From a virus, in the UHGV virus genome UHGV-1373565: a stretch of DNA of 46,060 nt; one strand, given 5' to 3'. Every line of letters starts with the position of its first letter. Position 1 is the stretch's first letter. Shown piece by piece: positions 3,048 to 18,126 of the stretch. A model generated the notes under the pieces. It saw only the letters and a list, made by a program, of their open reading frames with translations. It had not been told where the DNA came from and did not search any database. The translations under genes and the position numbers were made by a program.

Positions 3048-3320
3048 ATGGTTAAAACTACAAGCTGGCAGGCTTACCAAGAAATCCTGCGTGGTGGTGT
3101 AGCTGTTAAGCAAGCTGAGAAGGTCTTGCAAACTATCAACTACTATCCATCTGGTGTAAGCAGGGCAACCATTGCTCGTGCTATGGGTATGCCTATTAAT
3201 GCTGTCTGTGGTCGTGTCAACGAGCTGCTGAAAGCTGAGGTAATTTATGTGTCAGGTACTGGTAAGTGCCCAGTAACTGGTAGGACTGTTGAGATGCTAA
3301 AGGTGGTTGAGTATGACTAA
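3048..3320 (+). CDS. Small winged-helix/HTH DNA-binding protein (90 aa).
   Basis: Segment SRATIARAMGMPINAVCGRVNELLKAEVI resembles the recognition helix-turn-helix of ArsR/MarR-type wHTH proteins; ggag RBS. Confidence 0.5.
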   Translation: MVKTTSWQAYQEILRGGVAVKQAEKVLQTINYYPSGVSRATIARAMGMPINAVCGRVNELLKAEVIYVSGTGKCPVTGRTVEMLKVVEYD

Positions 3321-3411
3321 GATTATTACACTTAATGTCACTATCATTGTTGACAGAGATACAGAGGTTATGGTAACTGGTGATAATGGCTCAGCTAAAT
3401 CTTTTTGCTAA
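3313..3411 (+). CDS. Possible small ORF (32 aa).
   Basis: ATGA overlap with the upstream stop; no other support. Confidence 0.2.
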   Translation: MTKIITLNVTIIVDRDTEVMVTGDNGSAKSFC

Positions 3412-3508
3412 AGTTTACAGCAGCTACAGTGATACTAACGATGACATCGAGCAAGCTATAGCTGCTGCATCAAGAGAAGTTATTAATGAACTAATGCCGG
3501 ATAACTGA
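3386..3508 (+). CDS. Possible small acidic ORF (40 aa).
   Basis: Fills the gap before the DNAP gene; weak support. Confidence 0.2.
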   Translation: MAQLNLFAKVYSSYSDTNDDIEQAIAAASREVINELMPDN

Positions 3509-3516
3509 GGTAAAAT

Positions 3517-5360
3517 ATGGAACACTTTCCGTCAATGTTTGCCAATAAAGCTGACCGCCCCTCTGGTAAGGGGCGCTTTCTTGTTGGTGACTTAGAGGGT
3601 GTGGGGCTTGTCAGGGCTATTCGTAAGCCGTCTGACATTCACGTCATCACCCTGCAAGATTACTTTAGTGGTGACTACTGGATTTTCTTCGACCCTATTG
3701 AGAAGCGAATCAACCCTAGTGAGCTGCAAATGGAAGGGGAGCAGGATGGCTACATTGAGGATGGTGTTCGTATGCTCATGGAGTCAGAGGCTTTCTGCTT
3801 CCAGAACGGCGTAGGCTTTGACTTGCATGTGTTTGAGAAATGCTTCCCGTGGTTCAAGTATAACTATTGTGAGTCACGAGCAGCTCGCCCACATGCTGAC
3901 ATCTTCCCGTTTAAGTTTATGGATACCATGCTGGTTAGCCAGCTGACCTATCCAGACCGCCCACTGCCACCACAAGCTTACGCCATTGGCGCAGGTAATA
4001 CGGGTCCACATAGTATTGCAGCTCATGGTATCCGCATGGGTCGCTATAAGCCTGACCATGAGGACTGGTCTACTCTTACTGATGCAATGATTCACCGTAA
4101 CGTGGAAGACGTTGCTATCGGTACTGATATGCTTAAGTGGCTCATGGAGGGTGATTGGGCTGAGCAGAAAGCTCGTGGTCTGAACAAGACTACTGGCTGT
4201 GGTATTGATACAGCTTATCAGATGGAGCAGCAAGTAGCGCTCATGATTAGCCGTCAGGAGCAGCGAGGCTTCCGCTTCGATATGGCACAGGCCTACAAAG
4301 ACTTCTGTACCATTGACAAGGAGATGGAAGACACAGCAGCTGCTGTTGACCCACTCATACCGCTCAGGCTGGTCACTAAGCCTTACAAGTTTGCTGACCT
4401 TAAGTCAAGGTATGATGCAGCTGTCAAGGCTGGGTTCACTGAGGCAGAGCTTAAGCCTATCTTCAATGGCATCAATCAGACCATGAAAGCTATGGGTGAT
4501 GAAGCTCGCATGGGTGACAAGGCTACTATGTGGTCTTTGACAACCAAGAACGGTGACTACAGCAAGCGTTTGCAAGGTTACTTCCCTGAGATGCGTGGCA
4601 ACATAAATGACACGCATGACCCTCTTGTAGCTGGTGCATTCACTCCAATTAGCTTTGAGCATATTGGCTTGGGTAATCTTGACTACATTAAAGAGAAGGT
4701 GCTGTATCCACTTGGCTGGCGTGGTGTTAACTTGTCGGACTCTGAGCAAGAGTGGTATGACGAGCATGGAACAACACGTTATCCGTGGTCTGGTAAGATT
4801 GATGACGACTCGCTTGAGCTATGGAAGAAGAAACAGGAAGTACCAGAGTGGGCGCAGCAGGTTGTTAACTACTACATCCTACGCTCGCGCCGCTCAGTTA
4901 TCCTGAACCGTGGCGACCTTGACCACTTCCTTGAGAAAGGTCAGTGGCCTAAGCAGAAGAATGGGCGTCATGAGTGCCGTGGCTTGCTGGCAGTAGCTTA
5001 CTGCAAAGAGCATGACATGATGGCTATGGAATACTTTGCTAAGTTCCGTGAGTGGCCTACATCTGAGGATGAGGACTGGCGTGTACCAGCAGCAGCTTTC
5101 AGCATAGGAACCAATACCTTCCGTATGCGTCATCGCTTTGTGGTTAACATACCTGCTCGTGGGTTGTGGCCTCTGCGCCACCTGTTCATTGCATCTAAGG
5201 GTAAACTTATCTTAGGCTGTGATGGGGCTGGCCTTGAGCTGCGTATGCTTAGTCACTTCATGAATGACCCTGAGTATCAGGACATCATTCTCACTGGTGA
5301 CATCCATACACATAACCAGCTTAAGGCAGGCTTGCCTACTCGTGATATGGCTAAGACGTT
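3517..5360 (+). CDS. DNA polymerase (family A, T7 gp5-like), exon 1. Ends inside motif B (...LPTRDMAKTF).
   Basis: Motif A DGAGLELR; DIHTHNQ; motif B begins RDMAKTF as in T7 RDNAKTF. The frame then diverges and stops 10 codons later. Confidence 0.85.
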
Positions 5361-6034
5361 TAACACAATGGGCGTCTATAAACTCCTCTAATTCGGTGAA
5401 CATCTCCAAGAGACAATACCGAGCTAAGCAGGTGGTCATAGCAACTCAATAGGAGGTGCTTATGATTATGTCAAACTGTAATAAGACTAAGGCAGAGCAA
5501 ACTGCCGACCCTGGTAAATATCCACAAGGCTACTTTAAACCAAAGCCTTGTAAGTGTTGTAAGAAAGTATTCACGCCTAAGGCTCCATCAGAGCTGTATT
5601 GCTCTGATACCTGTAAAGATAAGGGTATAATGAATGCTTACTTGCAACGCAATTATGGTATCACCTTCCGCCAATACCGCCTCATGCTTGAAGACCAGAA
5701 AGGTTTATGCAAGATTTGTGGTAGTGAAGGTTTCATAATGAATAAGGATAGACACAAGATGAAGCTTGTAGTAGATCACTGCCACTCCACTGGTAAGGTC
5801 AGAGGCTTACTGTGTCATAACTGCAATAGGGCATTAGGTTTATTCCAAGATAGCCAAGATTCACTACTCAAAGCTATTGACTACCTGAAAGTGTAACGAC
5901 TAGCCGAAAGGCGTAGGGCTAAGCAGCCCGAAACGGGGAGGCTCGCAAGAGCAAGAGATAGTCTGCTCTGCATGGTGACATGCAGCAGTTCTATAAGAAC
6001 GGCCTAGGTCTAGCGAGCCTAGGTGAACATAAGG
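5361..6034 (+). mobile_element. Group I intron (about 674 nt) interrupting DNAP motif B and carrying an HNH homing-endonuclease ORF.
   Basis: The 5' exon ends in U (acgtt|) and the intron ends in G (aagg|), as group I splicing requires. Joining 5360 to 6035 restores KTF-IYAFLYGSG, matching T7 KTFIYGFLYGAG. The 3' part holds GNRA-capped hairpins (gcc-gaaa-ggc; ctgcatg-gtga-catgcag). Such introns are reported in T7-like DNAP genes. Confidence 0.6.
5462..5896 (+). CDS. Intron-encoded HNH endonuclease (Endonuclease VII / HNH family).
   Basis: CKICG...VVDHCHSTGKVRGLLCHNCNRALG motif; aggagg RBS 5 nt upstream of the ATG. Confidence 0.8.
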   Translation: MIMSNCNKTKAEQTADPGKYPQGYFKPKPCKCCKKVFTPKAPSELYCSDTCKDKGIMNAYLQRNYGITFRQYRLMLEDQKGLCKICGSEGFIMNKDRHKMKLVVDHCHSTGKVRGLLCHNCNRALGLFQDSQDSLLKAIDYLKV

Positions 6035-6731
6035 TATATACGCATTTTTATATGGCTCTGGCATTGATGGGCTAGCTCGCTTGGCTGGCATTAGCTTTAG
6101 TGAGATGGAACAGTGTATTGCTCGCTTCAAAGCTGAGCTACCTGCACTTGCTAAGCTCATTGAGCGTGTGGAAACTGCTGGTCGCAAGTTCGGATACCTA
6201 CAAGCTATTGATGGTCGCTGGGGCCGTATTCGCCGTAAGAATGGCAAGCCACTGTTGCACACTGCACTTAACGTATTGCTTCAGATGACTGGCTCTCTGG
6301 TTATGAAGTATGGTGAGTGCATCGCTGAGACTCAGATGATTGAGGAAGGGGTTGCATTAGATGATAAAGGCTATCCAGCTTTCGTGGCTAACGTACACGA
6401 TGAAGTACAGATGGAAGTCCCTGAAGATGAAGTTGATGTTATGGACTACACGTTGCCATATACACTTGATGGATTCGAGAATGAGAAGAAAGCTATCAAA
6501 GCGGTCTTTGATGTTGAGGAGAAGCGAGCACACACTGATGACAGTGGGCGTAAGTGGTCAGCAGCTATCAAGGTTTCTGCTGCTGATGGTACTATCCATT
6601 GTCGCAGGTACTATCATCGAGCTGGTAACATCCTTATGGATGCTTTCGAAGCTGCTGGTGTTAAGTTCAACATGAGATGCCCACTTGCTGGTGAATATAA
6701 GATAGGCCGTAACTGGCACGATACTCACTAG
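6035..6731 (+). CDS. DNA polymerase exon 2 (motif B remainder IYAFLYGSG through motif C VHDEVQ to C-terminal His).
   Basis: In-frame reading upstream of the track ORF 6081-6731 gives GIYAFLYGSGIDG...; HTALNVLLQMTGSL and VANVHDEVQMEV match T7 gp5 C-terminal motifs. Confidence 0.8.
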
Positions 6732-7609: not shown

Positions 7610-7689
7610 AGCTGAGTAGACTCAATTGGTAGAGCGGTACACCAGAAATGGCAGTATCAGTTGCTGGTTCAAGTCCAGCCTCAGCGACC
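7610..7689 (+). tRNA. tRNA-like element with canonical D-loop and T-arm; the anticodon arm cannot be resolved.
   Basis: AGCTCA-like D-arm (ACTCAATTGGTAGAGC); perfect T-arm GCTGG-TTCAAGT-CCAGC; 6/7 acceptor pairs (GCTGAG/CTCAGC) then ACC. The 27 nt between the D- and T-arms do not fold into a standard 5-bp/7-nt anticodon stem-loop. Confidence 0.4.
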
Positions 7690-8116: not shown

Positions 8117-8154
8117 GCCCCATTGGTCAATCGACCTTTGGGGCTTATTTTTGT
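8117..8154 (+). terminator. Rho-independent terminator (GC hairpin followed by ttatttttgtt).
   Basis: gcccca...tggggc stem with inner ggtc/gacc pairing, then a T-tract. Its 3' half is near-identical to the terminator at 18094-18126. Confidence 0.6.
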
Positions 8155-8638: not shown

Positions 8639-9707
8639 TTTTGGCGCTGAGGTAACTGAGCGAGTAAGCCCTGTAAAGCTATGGCCTACTGATGGTAGCG
8701 TGGTTGGCTTAGTGGATGCTGACCTATTACCATATAACATTGCTTATGGCCTTGACCCGCTGAAGGTACTACGAGCACAGAACAGAGTAGAGTCAGGCTC
8801 TTGCTCCTGTATTGCAGAGACACCTGAGTTTATTGATGCTGCTGAGTCTATGGCTACCCGCATGAATAACTGGCTAGAAGAAGCTGGCTGTGATGCCGCC
8901 ATTCCCTACATGACGAAATCAGATAGCAACTTCAGACTTGATGTAGCTTTCTCCAGACCATACAAAGGTCAGCGTAAGAAGGAGAAGCCACCATTCTTCT
9001 ATGAGCTGCGTGATTTCCTTATCAGCCATATGGGTGCAGTGATGTCAGATGGTGAGGAGGCAGATGACCTTATCTCTATGGAAGCTGAGCGGCGCAACAA
9101 GCTTCTTGAGGAACAGGGTATTGTACTAGGCTCACCCACTCATAAAGAGTTCTGTGACTTTGTGATTATCTCATCTGATAAGGATAGCCGCATCACAGCT
9201 GGCAGACACTACGACCCTTATCACATGAAGCTAACCTTTGGCACACCTCTAGGTGAGCTTGAGCCTGTCTATAAAGACGGGAAGATTAAGTCCATCAAGG
9301 GAAGTGGTTTGCGCTTCTTCTATGCGCAACTCCTCATGGGCGACCAGATTGATAACTACACTGGTATCCCTCGTTATAGATTGCAGAAGGTCTACGAGCT
9401 GCTCGGTCAGCTTAAGACAGAGCAAGAACTTTATTACACTGTACTTGAAGCTTATAAAGATAAGTATGGCAAAGGTATGGTGGTGGAAAACTACCGTGGA
9501 ACTAAGAAGTTCTATGATGATTACATGGATGACTTTGGAGTACCGCCACCTGATTATGAACTTTGGAAAGGCAAGAAAGCTTTCCTCACACCTTATCAGC
9601 TGATGGTAGAGCAAGGGAGACTTGCGTACATGCAGAAGTTTAAGGGTGACATCTGGAGAGCTAATTGCAAGCTTCCATCAGGTGGAGACTTGAATGCATG
9701 GAGTTAA
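8619..9707 (+). CDS. 5'-3' exonuclease (T7 gp6 / FEN-like).
   Basis: N-terminal VVGLVDADLLPYNIAY resembles the Pol I 5'-exo motif LLVDG..LAYR; position after the DNAP. Start overlaps the HNH gene by 20 nt. Confidence 0.6.
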   Translation: MNLNEFDFGAEVTERVSPVKLWPTDGSVVGLVDADLLPYNIAYGLDPLKVLRAQNRVESGSCSCIAETPEFIDAAESMATRMNNWLEEAGCDAAIPYMTKSDSNFRLDVAFSRPYKGQRKKEKPPFFYELRDFLISHMGAVMSDGEEADDLISMEAERRNKLLEEQGIVLGSPTHKEFCDFVIISSDKDSRITAGRHYDPYHMKLTFGTPLGELEPVYKDGKIKSIKGSGLRFFYAQLLMGDQIDNYTGIPRYRLQKVYELLGQLKTEQELYYTVLEAYKDKYGKGMVVENYRGTKKFYDDYMDDFGVPPPDYELWKGKKAFLTPYQLMVEQGRLAYMQKFKGDIWRANCKLPSGGDLNAWS

Positions 9708-10105
9708 AGAAAACTACTAAAGCCGATTTAGTTTGGATTAAGAAAGAGCTGCTGGAGAAGCAGCGTTACCGTTGCCCTATTACTGGTAGAGATTTACGGA
9801 CAATGAAGCCAGCTAACTTGTGTGTTGACCACTGTCACACATCAGGTGTTATTAGAGCTGTGCTGCCAAAGGGTATCAATGGACTTGAAGGAAAGATTAA
9901 AACACTGATGCAACGGTTTGGTGGCTTTGAGGTCACTGATGTAGTAGGACAGGCCAAGGCCTTATATGCACTAGCAGACTTCATCCTCTTACACAGAGTG
10001 CCACAGACACCTTATCTGCATCATACACACCTGTCACCAGCAGAGCAGAGGGCTAAGCGTAATGCTCAGGCTCGTAAGCGGTATGCTTTGAAGAAGAAGG
10101 AGTAA
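9698..10105 (+). CDS. Endonuclease VII-family (HNH) protein, possible Holliday-junction resolvase.
   Basis: CPITG...CVDHCHTSGVIRAVL motif, paralogous to the intron ORF at 5462. Basic C-terminus. An in-frame upstream ATG at 9665 is an alternative start. Confidence 0.6.
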   Translation: MELKKTTKADLVWIKKELLEKQRYRCPITGRDLRTMKPANLCVDHCHTSGVIRAVLPKGINGLEGKIKTLMQRFGGFEVTDVVGQAKALYALADFILLHRVPQTPYLHHTHLSPAEQRAKRNAQARKRYALKKKE

Positions 10106-16964: not shown

Positions 16965-18077
16965 ATGTCTAGCGTTAACAATCTGGTAAACCCTGCTGTC
17001 TCAGTCTCTGGTGAGGTAGACACACTACTCATTGAGAAGTTTGATGGTCAGGTTAAGTTGGCCTATAAAGAGATGGTCAACATGATGCGCTACTTCGACC
17101 TGAAGGAAGTGGTAGGCACTAACTCCGTTTCTAACAAATACATGGGCACTACCCAAGTTCAGGGCTTAGCTCCGGGTGCTGATGTTAAAGGCACACAAGT
17201 TGAGTTCGACAAAAACCAGCTGGTAATCGACACTGTTGTTATTGCACGTAACAACGTAGGTATTCTGGCTGATGTTCAGGATGACATCAATACCAAAGGT
17301 AAACTGGCAGTAGACCAAGTAGAACAGCTGGGTATGATGGAAGACCGTATGCTTATCCAGCAGATTGCTTATGGTGCTATCAAGAACACCAGTGCTAAGC
17401 GTACCAAACCTCGTGTACGTGGTCACGGCTTCTCTGTTGATGTTAAAGTCAAGGCAGAGACTATGGAGTACCCTAACGCTGTTCAGGCTTCTCTGGAAGC
17501 TGTTCTGGAAGCTATGGTCAAGCAGAACGTACCTATCCAGAAGATTGCAGCAATTATGGATTGGACATACTTCAATACCCTGCGTGATGCAGAGCGTATT
17601 GTAAATGCCACCTACACCACTGCCTCTGGTACTACCGTCAATGGCTTTGTACTGAAGTCTTACAACCTGCCAATCATTCCTACTAACCAGATGCCTAATA
17701 AGGATCGTGACCAGCAGGACTTGGATGGCAACACTACAGACCATCACCTGCTGTCTAATGCTAATAACGGATACCGTTATGATGTTCTGGCAACTGGTGA
17801 TGACCGCATGGATAACGTAGTAGCTGTCCTGTTCGGCTCAGAGGGTCTAATGGTTGGTCGCTCAATCTCACTGCAAGGTAAGATTTGGATGAACGACAAC
17901 AACAAGACTTGGTACATTGACTCTTGGATGTCAGAGGGTGCTATCCCTGACCGTTGGGAGCACCTTGGCATTGTACGTGTGGTAGGGGACGACAAAGCCT
18001 CTGAGGATATTGCAGTCCGTAAGCGTGCTAACCGTAAGGTTGTTCCGGTGTCTAACACCCCACTGGCTACTTCTTAA
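16965..18077 (+). CDS. Major capsid protein.
   Basis: Size (370 aa), strong promoter, strong terminator, optimal codon usage, position. Confidence 0.8.
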   Translation: MSSVNNLVNPAVSVSGEVDTLLIEKFDGQVKLAYKEMVNMMRYFDLKEVVGTNSVSNKYMGTTQVQGLAPGADVKGTQVEFDKNQLVIDTVVIARNNVGILADVQDDINTKGKLAVDQVEQLGMMEDRMLIQQIAYGAIKNTSAKRTKPRVRGHGFSVDVKVKAETMEYPNAVQASLEAVLEAMVKQNVPIQKIAAIMDWTYFNTLRDAERIVNATYTTASGTTVNGFVLKSYNLPIIPTNQMPNKDRDQQDLDGNTTDHHLLSNANNGYRYDVLATGDDRMDNVVAVLFGSEGLMVGRSISLQGKIWMNDNNKTWYIDSWMSEGAIPDRWEHLGIVRVVGDDKASEDIAVRKRANRKVVPVSNTPLATS

Positions 18078-18093
18078 TTATAAGTGCCACTTT

Positions 18094-18126
18094 GCCCCGT
18101 CCTCTTGGATGGGGCTTATTTTTGTT
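18094..18126 (+). terminator. Rho-independent terminator (T-phi analogue) after the capsid gene.
   Basis: gccccgtcc-tctt-ggatggggc 9-bp stem followed by ttatttttgtt. Confidence 0.75.

Follow-up and report, generated by a model that had tools for sequence, protein, structure and literature searches.

A putative mobile IA2 group I intron carrying an Endonuclease VII-type gene in the O-helix codon of a Klebsiella phage DNA polymerase gene

The virus genome UHGV-1373565, analysed here as one stretch of 46,060 nucleotides (nt) and called the window below, is an apparently complete genome of about 46 kb from a Gajwadongvirus-like Klebsiella podophage, and its only DNA polymerase gene, a member of family A, is interrupted by an insert of 674 nt. 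This insert, at positions 5361..6034, is very probably a mobile, self-splicing phage group I intron of the IA2 type, located in the codon of the polymerase O-helix that is equivalent to F524 of the T7 enzyme, and an open reading frame (ORF) of the Endonuclease VII family is looped out from its helix P6a. The intron is of a known kind, now found in a new host genus, and no new principle is involved; the chief use of the case lies in getting the annotation right. Among related phages, vB_Kp_Z1 shows 97% identity to the window over the structural half of the genome, and ECBP5, Roth32, RCIP0053 and RCIP0089 are related to it as well.

The interrupted polymerase gene and the fold of the insert

Comparison with relatives defined the extent of the insert. 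The polymerase genes of ECBP5, vB_Kp_Z1 and Roth32 are intron-less at this site and collinear with the window on both sides of it, and the stretch that they lack is exactly these 674 nt. Without splicing, the frame that begins at 3517 runs through ...RDMAKTF into NTMGVYKLL and then a stop codon, and from 6035/6036 to 6731 the remaining part of the gene (IYAFLYGSGIDG...) forms an open frame. When 5360 is joined to 6035, the result is a single ORF of 847 amino acids (aa), ...RDMAKTF-IYAFLYGSGIDG..., for which the predicted exon-exon junction in ligated RNA is ...AAGACGTT followed by TATATACG..., and the predicted tryptic peptide spanning the junction is ...DMAK/TFIYAFLYGSGIDGLAR. The earliest in-frame start past the junction is a TTG at 6081, located 15 codons downstream and lacking a Shine-Dalgarno sequence. 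An earlier note on this DNA, made from the letters and reading frames, had the polymerase resuming 674 nt further on, in frame and with no start codon, and the intron-less relatives bear this out; it also placed the end of the frame 10 codons after RDMAKTF, where in fact nine extra codons are followed by the stop as the tenth.

The spliced protein aligns with T7 DNA polymerase with no gap across the junction, LPTRDNAKTFIYGFLYGAG corresponding to R518...Y530 of T7, and in the chain numbering of this alignment the O-helix residues are R518-K522-Y526-Y530. The split codon is that of F524, which comes after K522 and before Y526 in the O-helix, and the insertion does therefore lie in motif B, as had been proposed from the sequence. 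The motif restored by splicing had been written R-x3-K-x3-F-x3-YG; the gapless alignment supports it except at the position given as F, where this enzyme and that of T7 both have Tyr.

At the junction, one T can be assigned to either side. The boundaries 5361..6034 were adopted because under no other placement does P1 contain a U·G pair while the intron ends in G; U5360 is then the last base of the exon and G6034 that of the intron, in accordance with the exon-final U and intron-final G described previously. The positions of the exons, of the intron and of its structural elements are listed in Table 1.

Table 1. Features of the interrupted polymerase gene and of its intron, in window coordinates
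Feature	Position	Strand	Evidence or remarks
Family-A DNA polymerase exon 1	3517..5360	+	ORF and translation; collinear with intron-less ECBP5 and vB_Kp_Z1 to 5360; weak Pfam DNA_pol_A match
Exon 1 end	5360	+	...LPTRDMAKT and first two bases of the Phe codon
DNA polymerase exon 2	6035..6731	+	Last base of the Phe codon, followed by IYAFLYGSG... up to the stop
Group I intron, IA2-type architecture, 674 nt	5361..6034	+	Relatives without the insert; same-site homologues; RF00028 homologue; covariation
In-frame TAA	5389..5391	+	Terminates translation of unspliced exon 1, directly after the P3 5' strand
P1	5354-5361 / 5370-5377 (U5360·G5371)	+	Exon/intron strand against internal guide; read from the sequence
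P3	5383-5388 (CUCCUC) / 5935-5940 (GGGGAG)	+	5 of 6 pairs doubly compensated; 100% of cells paired
J3/4 (AAU)	5390-5392	+	
P4	5393-5398 / 5417-5422	+	Rfam alignment of homologue, pair counts, minimum free energy (MFE) fold
P5	5403-5406 / 5410-5413	+	Rfam alignment of homologue, pair counts, MFE fold
P6	5423-5424 / 5891-5892	+	
P6a	5429-5438 / 5878-5887	+	Closes the loop that holds the ORF; 7 of 7 counted pairs covary
Shine-Dalgarno AGGAGG of intron ORF	5451..5456	+	5 nt upstream of ATG
Predicted homing endonuclease gene, 144 aa, in P6a loop	5462..5896	+	Pfam Endonuclease_7 (PF02945)
P7	5898-5902 (GACUA) / 5959-5963 (UAGUC)	+	Invariant in 9 of 9 sequences; aligned to RF00028 P7 in homologue
P7.1	5903-5912, GAAA loop 5906-5909	+	2 of 3 pairs covary
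GUA linker of P7.1 and P7.2	5913-5915	+	Invariant
P7.2	5916-5929	+	5 of 5 pairs covary
P8 hairpin	5941-5952, GCAA loop 5945-5948	+	3 of 4 pairs covary
J8/7 (AAGAGA)	5953-5958	+	With the P7 3' strand agrees with the RF00028 consensus AAGAUAUAGUC
P9	5968-5985, GUGA loop 5975-5978	+	3 of 7 pairs covary; MFE fold
P9.1	5988-6000	+	2 of 5 pairs covary
P9.2	6003-6023	+	5 of 6 pairs covary; MFE fold
Terminal guanosine (ωG), 3' splice site	6034	+	Terminal G in all 9 aligned relatives and LUZ24
Probable co-conversion tract, 5' part	5311..5360	+	10 synonymous differences from vB_Kp_Z1
Probable co-conversion tract, 3' part	6035..6084	+	13 synonymous differences from vB_Kp_Z1
Intron site A, between TFR and MRH	5124/5125		Uninterrupted in the window
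Intron site B	5360/6035		Occupied by the intron of the window
Intron site C, between VH and DE (motif C)	6398/6399		Uninterrupted in the window (6396-6401 = CAC GAT)

The insert has the architecture of a group I intron. P1 and P3 are separated by 5 nt and there is no P2; P7.1 and P7.2, joined by GUA, lie between P7 and the 3' strand of P3. A linkage of P7.1 to P7.2 by G-U-A is the mark of IA2 introns used in a study of the phage ΦI/W31 introns, for which the absence of P2 and a P6a ORF were also given (PMC3428280). By homology, P7 is taken as the guanosine-binding helix. The several GNRA-capped helices noticed earlier correspond to P7.1, P8 and P9, and every core helix is intact in the window itself. 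A possible anti-Shine-Dalgarno-like role of the P3 strand CUCCUC was considered and dropped, as this strand is not conserved in relatives.

In order to find related introns, the intron with its ORF deleted was used as a BLAST query, and 622 phage records were matched, 230 of them from Escherichia phages (counted irrespective of which intron matched) and 46 covering at least 80% of the query. Eight relatives were fetched for comparison, and in seven of them, Yep-phi, Jarilo, phiEa1H, ULINTec4, DU_RP_I, VTCCBPA_211 (a 75-kb Kuravirus) and PT2, the intron has the same junctions: AAGAC(G/C)UU followed by UAA(C/U)A(C/U)AAUGGG(C/G)GUC on the 5' side, and GAACA...(A/G)G followed by (U/C)AU on the 3' side. 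Over the aligned pieces the same-site introns are 77-83% identical to the ORF-deleted query, the figure for DU_RP_I being 73%.

Covariation was counted in an alignment of nine homologous introns with the ORF loop excised, comprising 68 pairs in 13 helices and 604 pair cells. Standard pairs occupy 97.5% of these cells, and 37 of the 68 pairs have changed on both sides; none of 500 shuffles attained the observed values, and controls in which the 3' partners were slid by 1-3 columns gave 37-42% paired cells and 5-13 doubly changed pairs. P1 is paired in 97% of its cells across the homologues, including a compensation in DU_RP_I, where the exon ACG has become ACC and the guide GGGCGUC has become GGGGGUC (G-C to C-G). 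The fold prediction that the earlier note had suggested as a check agrees with this picture: the MFE fold of the ORF-deleted intron recovers ten of the proposed helices (P1, P3, P4, P5, P6a, P7.1, P7.2, P8, P9 and P9.2), with z = -3.9. The exact 674-nt difference, the covariation and the 46 phage records covering at least 80% of the query exclude chance.

Several observations weigh against the assignment. No more than nine sequences, all of them related, underlie the pair counts, and drawing the structure on the window gave it an advantage over the slid controls. The Rfam scan of the whole window at the gathering threshold gave no match; on RF00028 the window intron reaches 22.7 bits (E 0.0022), below the gathering score of 50, and a slightly different slice of the window gave an 18-bit fragment only. 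No convincing P10, which would pair the start of the 3' exon with L1, was found. A literature search found no splicing or cleavage experiments on any of the same-codon introns or their endonucleases.

The low RF00028 score can be traced to the alignment, in which the 5' strand of P7 and the 3' strand of P3 were wrongly put within the ORF, because the 440-nt ORF in P6a and the P7.1/P7.2 insertion caused them to be mis-assigned. The covariance-model search proposed in the earlier note stayed below threshold for the window itself and was positive for an ORF-less homologue, the 243-nt same-codon intron of DU_RP_I, which scores 62.9 bits (E 2e-14), above the gathering score. The Rfam alignment of this copy assigns P1, P3, P4, P5, P6/P6a, P7, the insertion between P7 and P3', P8, J8/7, P7' and P9, and its helices are the same as those assigned by eye on the window. 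Together with the covariation in nine introns, this homologue upholds the original group I assignment. That the window intron splices is expected from its homology to this Rfam-passing copy and from the need for an intact O-helix.

In the proposed mechanism, P1 would arise by pairing between the exon end AGACGUU and the internal guide GGGCGUCU, presenting U5360·G5371, and the core (the P3/P7 pseudoknot, P4-P6, P7.1/P7.2, P8 and P9-P9.2) would fold around it. An external guanosine in P7 would attack after U5360, and the freed 3'-OH of exon 1 would then attack after ωG6034, ligating the exons and restoring RDMAKTF-IYAFLYG, an intact O-helix and the full-length polymerase. On unspliced RNA, ribosomes would halt at the in-frame TAA and no functional polymerase would be made. 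The endonuclease would be translated from its own Shine-Dalgarno sequence and ATG in the P6a loop and, in a mixed infection, would cut intron-less polymerase alleles near the site; repair from an intron-bearing genome would then copy the intron along with about 50-100 nt of flanking exon, that is, homing with co-conversion. Endonuclease activity, the target cut and any link of translation to splicing are predictions of this scheme.

The intron-encoded endonuclease and signs of homing

The ORF of the intron matches PF02945 with 81.9 bits (E 3e-23, cutoff 23.6), in agreement with the EndoVII-type HNH gene of the earlier note. When it was aligned to T4 EndoVII (1e7d) and Hpy99I (3fc3), residues D105, H106, H108, R114 and N122 were found to be conserved, and the zinc-binding cysteines C83, C86, C118 and C121 are kept; the DHHRN residue set of homing endonucleases used to score the ORF was taken from PMC6083498. 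To judge from its sequence, the product would be a homing endonuclease with a ββα-metal nuclease domain of the Endonuclease VII (DHHRN) type. Its N-terminal region of about 60 aa is rich in cysteines (CKCC...C..C) and missing from T4 EndoVII, and the sequence and one database name suggest that it is probably an added zinc-ribbon DNA-binding module. Public data contain more than 1000 homologues of the ORF at E <= 1e-10; its identity is 71% to the ORF of Jarilo, 72% to that of IME184, 67% to that of Yep-phi and 56% to gp35 of LUZ24 (over 126 aa).

Six of the seven ORF-bearing relatives have AGGAGG or GGAGG at the position aligned with the Shine-Dalgarno sequence of the window, and in phiEa1H the AGGAGG lies a few nt downstream. 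At the other end of the gene, the final six or so codons and the stop overlap the 3' strands of P6a and P6 and the joining segment J6/7. A hairpin at 5432-5469 could pair the AUG of the endonuclease gene (5462) with 5437-5439, in competition with P6a, but its stability exceeds that of shuffles only marginally (z = -1.9); such a hairpin might limit translation of the endonuclease.

The flanks of the intron carry a signature of recent transfer. Between the window and vB_Kp_Z1, its closest intron-less relative, there are 93 differences in 2.5 kb, of which 23 are located in the 50 nt on each side of the junction, every one of them synonymous (Fisher p = 1.5e-13, odds ratio 10). In RCIP0053, which has the intron, the stretch from -100 to 0 agrees with the window at every position and 0..+50 differs from it once, with more divergence further out. 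The converted bases take in the exon strand of P1, which reads AAG ACG TT in the window and AAA ACT TT in vB_Kp_Z1. The intron itself is present in RCIP0053, where the insert is 98% identical, and absent from vB_Kp_Z1, ECBP5 and Roth32. The clustering of synonymous differences in the flanks therefore points to co-conversion, i.e. recent homing. The endonuclease copy of RCIP0053 (locus 2195-2630, 98% identical) appears as two overlapping annotated ORFs and as two tblastn pieces, which reflects either a frameshift (decay) or a sequencing error.

Two other genes of related function lie on the + strand of the window. A free-standing Endonuclease_7 gene at 9665..10105 (PF02945, E 1e-7) is located among replication and recombination genes; its product shares only 35% identity over 48 aa with the intron ORF, and it is probably the Holliday-junction resolvase of the phage. 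Downstream of the polymerase region, a free-standing ORF of 171 aa at 8123..8638 matches HNH_3 (PF13392, E 4e-10) and likely encodes another homing endonuclease.

The matches to 'Recombination endonuclease VII' in Pfam raise the question of whether the intron ORF is itself the resolvase, a true Endonuclease VII, as resolvases of the EndoVII type serve many podoviruses and residues 60-143 of the ORF are matched by short EndoVII genes from Klebsiella phages. The gene at 9665..10105 is the likelier resolvase, and for this reason the intron copy is argued, by the same reasoning as in PMC6083498, to be a homing endonuclease. The Cys-rich N-terminal region, extra to T4 EndoVII, and the co-conversion tract both speak for homing, and the ORF is optional: it is missing along with the intron in close relatives, and in same-site introns unrelated ORFs, or none, take its place. 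In PMC6083498, moreover, the homologues from Berlin, YpP-G and LUZ24 fall into a homing/restriction clade and not the resolvase clade. A resolvase role for the intron ORF is accordingly very unlikely. It is still less probable that an endonuclease gene has merely been inserted and that two polymerase polypeptides assemble without RNA splicing. Annotation would suggest such a split enzyme, phiEa1H having a 'DNA polymerase A, part A / part B' and Jarilo, ULINTec4 and IME184 two polymerase coding sequences (CDSs) each, and the Jarilo preprint (10.1101/2020.01.16.909176) states that splicing has not been demonstrated within the Autographivirinae. However, the second part has neither a start codon nor a Shine-Dalgarno sequence at the junction, and initiation at TTG 6081 would cost the enzyme IYAFLYGSGIDGLARL, and with it both the YG of motif B and the Tyr that is invariant in the O-helix. 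Compensatory changes preserve a group I fold in the 240 non-coding nt that surround the ORF, and gene insertion does not explain the ORF-less copy in the same codon of DU_RP_I.

A decayed relic, dead for splicing, or an assembly artefact, with the polymerase a pseudogene, would fit the below-threshold Rfam score and the endonuclease ORF in two pieces in the near-identical copy of RCIP0053. Yet the genome is an apparently complete one of lytic type in which this is the sole DNA polymerase gene, all core helices are intact, the ORF is full-length with all its catalytic residues, and the same insert occurs at 98% identity in RCIP0053, an independently sequenced phage; this explanation is the hardest of the three to credit. 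The preferred reading therefore remains that of a mobile group I intron with a homing endonuclease gene. An intein is ruled out by stop codons in the polymerase frame of the insert, and translational bypass or frameshifting by its length, 674 nt being far beyond any known hop, with the RNA fold accounting for the insert.

Related introns at this and other sites of phage polymerase genes

The same intron also occupies the same codon in the Yersinia phages Berlin, Yepe2 and YpP-G and in phiEa100. In Berlin, Yepe2, Yep-phi, YpP-G and Jarilo (Autographiviridae, Studiervirinae) the insertion point is that of the window, AAGACGUU followed by UAACACAAUGGGCGUC at the 5' splice site and GAACA(U/C)UAAGG followed by UAU at the 3' splice site. 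In P1 and its guide these introns have the sequence of the window, their IA2 core is the same (77-79% identical to the query without the ORF), and P6a holds a homologous EndoVII-type ORF, with the identities given above for Yep-phi and Jarilo; the ORFs of Berlin and YpP-G have been stated to be intron-embedded (PMC6083498). The hosts differ, the window being a Gajwadongvirus-like Klebsiella phage and the others belonging to Berlinvirus or Jarilovirus, and P3, P5, P6a, P7.1, P7.2, P8 and P9.2 differ by compensatory substitutions.

The same ribozyme in the same codon may also carry a different cargo in P6a. ULINTec4 (127 aa, locus 500-883) and VTCCBPA_211 (164 aa, locus 504-998) have ORFs related to each other, with the C-terminal sequence GSHN(T/S)AHLDRI...WISGRANRIKYDAT, phiEa1H has an ORF of 81 aa (locus 506-751), and DU_RP_I (locus 401-643) has none; none of these ORFs resembles the endonuclease of the window.

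In six of seven fetched relatives, the CDS annotated for exon 1 runs 31 nt into the intron, to locus position 431, and in IME184 it runs to 434; the GenBank record of Yep-phi annotates the polymerase CDS as a join, with the intervening insert at the codon of the window. The polymerase should be annotated as one spliced gene in the window, RCIP0053, Jarilo, phiEa1H, ULINTec4, IME184, DU_RP_I, VTCCBPA_211 and PT2, and the misannotation as two 'polymerase parts' with a 'recombination endonuclease VII' or hypothetical proteins should be dropped. The Gajwadongvirus-like Klebsiella phage thus joins the hosts of a widespread O-helix intron, with fresh signs of mobility.

At least three intron sites exist in the polymerase genes of the phage group to which the window belongs, and the window occupies site B only. 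At site A, Roth32 has a 706-nt insert (locus 1626-2331) whose ORF bears the annotation homing-endonuclease zinc-binding loop; in RCIP0053 the intron there has 232 nt and no ORF (locus 1626-1857; RF00028, 38 bits). RCIP0053 further has an intron of about 648 nt at site C (locus about 3132-3779) with an HNH gene like those of K1F and T3 gp5.3, and so carries three introns in its polymerase gene against one in the window. With up to three introns per gene in relatives, this group offers a natural system for competition among introns and endonucleases, and it suits the study of marker exclusion between Klebsiella phages that are therapeutic candidates.

Close to site B, the intron of the Pseudomonas phage LUZ24 (669 nt, locus 444-1112) belongs, like that of the window, to group I and interrupts a family-A polymerase in motif B. 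It splices in vivo (PMC10914365, citing Ceyssens 2008), and of all experimental results this one comes closest to supporting splicing of the window intron. Its gp35, an 'endonuclease VII', and the ORF of the window both end in ...YL(K/Q)V and a stop, a C-terminus that overlaps the ribozyme, and the P7 and J8/7 core is similar. The LUZ24 insertion, in contrast, is 5 nt further downstream (TTC ATC T followed by AT, inside the Tyr codon), and its guide sequence is different and its ribozyme more divergent. In the Klebsiella phage IME184 (locus 371-1040), a related ribozyme is found 12 nt downstream, between IYAF and LYG, with its guide re-tuned to the shifted site. One lineage of endonucleases (56-72% identical) is thus found with related IA2 ribozymes at 0 (the window, Yersinia phages and others), +5 (LUZ24) and +12 (IME184), three positions that lie within 12 nt of O-helix coding sequence, each with a guide that fits its own site. 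It is conceivable, if rather doubtful, that this locus records the re-targeting or 'sliding' of introns around a fixed endonuclease cleavage site, with ribozymes and endonucleases shuffled independently. If so, the locus would lend itself well to testing the Bonocora-Shub model of mobile intron assembly, and the window would represent one ordinary allele.

The earlier note had placed the element, as a probable member, in the class of HNH-containing introns known from genes for DNA polymerase in some T7-like phages. This holds in so far as introns of the same kind, in the same codon, occur in other phages; it does not extend to the experimentally characterised ΦI/W31 (I-TslI) element. The ΦI/W31 introns resemble that of the window in having a family-A polymerase host, IA2 type, no P2, a P6a ORF and P7.1/P7.2 with GUA, and differ in their site, which is position 881 of E. 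coli Pol I (PMC3428280) and not motif B; the comparison of sites and endonucleases rests on that paper and on K1F as a proxy. The polymerase intron of K1F lies between VH and DE in motif C, equivalent to 6398/6399 of the window, unlike the motif B site of the window intron. Its HNH protein is visibly homologous to T3 gp5.3, the printed sequences being compared by eye, and belongs to a family other than that of the window ORF; I-TslI is reportedly homologous to T3 gp5.3 too. The 5' core of the K1F intron resembles that of the window by eye (…GGUGAAC…GACAAUACCGAGCCAAGCC). BLASTP of T3 gp5.3 against the window ORF gave no alignment, and a large protein search with the ORF found no entry named I-TslI-like. 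Identity of the window and Yep-phi intron with that of ΦI/W31 was rejected, as similarity to T3 gp5.3 is missing and the K1F intron lies in motif C.

Further parallels are the td and nrdB introns of T4, the classic IA2 introns of phages. They too have P7.1/P7.2, loop an ORF out from P6a and reach an in-frame stop soon after the 5' splice site, and they are inserted in a conserved catalytic region of a nucleotide-metabolism gene. They are unlike the window intron in their host genes and in their endonucleases, which are of the GIY-YIG and not the EndoVII type. The use of the EndoVII motif for homing is known from F-CphI and the DHHRN family (PMC6083498), and the window ORF has all of D, H, H, R and N as well as the four Cys. 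F-CphI is free-standing, beside the psbA intron site of a cyanomyovirus, and has another DNA-binding part, whereas the predicted enzyme of the window is intron-encoded.

Other RNA elements in the window

A weak Rfam match to anti-hemB small RNA at 18043..18123 (+; 27.3 bits, gathering score 49.5, E 0.022) is probably due to chance. A tRNA-like element at 7610..7687 (+) reached 34.6 bits on the Rfam tRNA model (gathering score 29) in an e-value scan; it is absent from the scan at gathering threshold, and ARAGORN found no tRNA. In vB_Kp_Z1 and Roth32, a tRNA-Ser is annotated at the matching place, after an ORF of 254 aa downstream of the polymerase.

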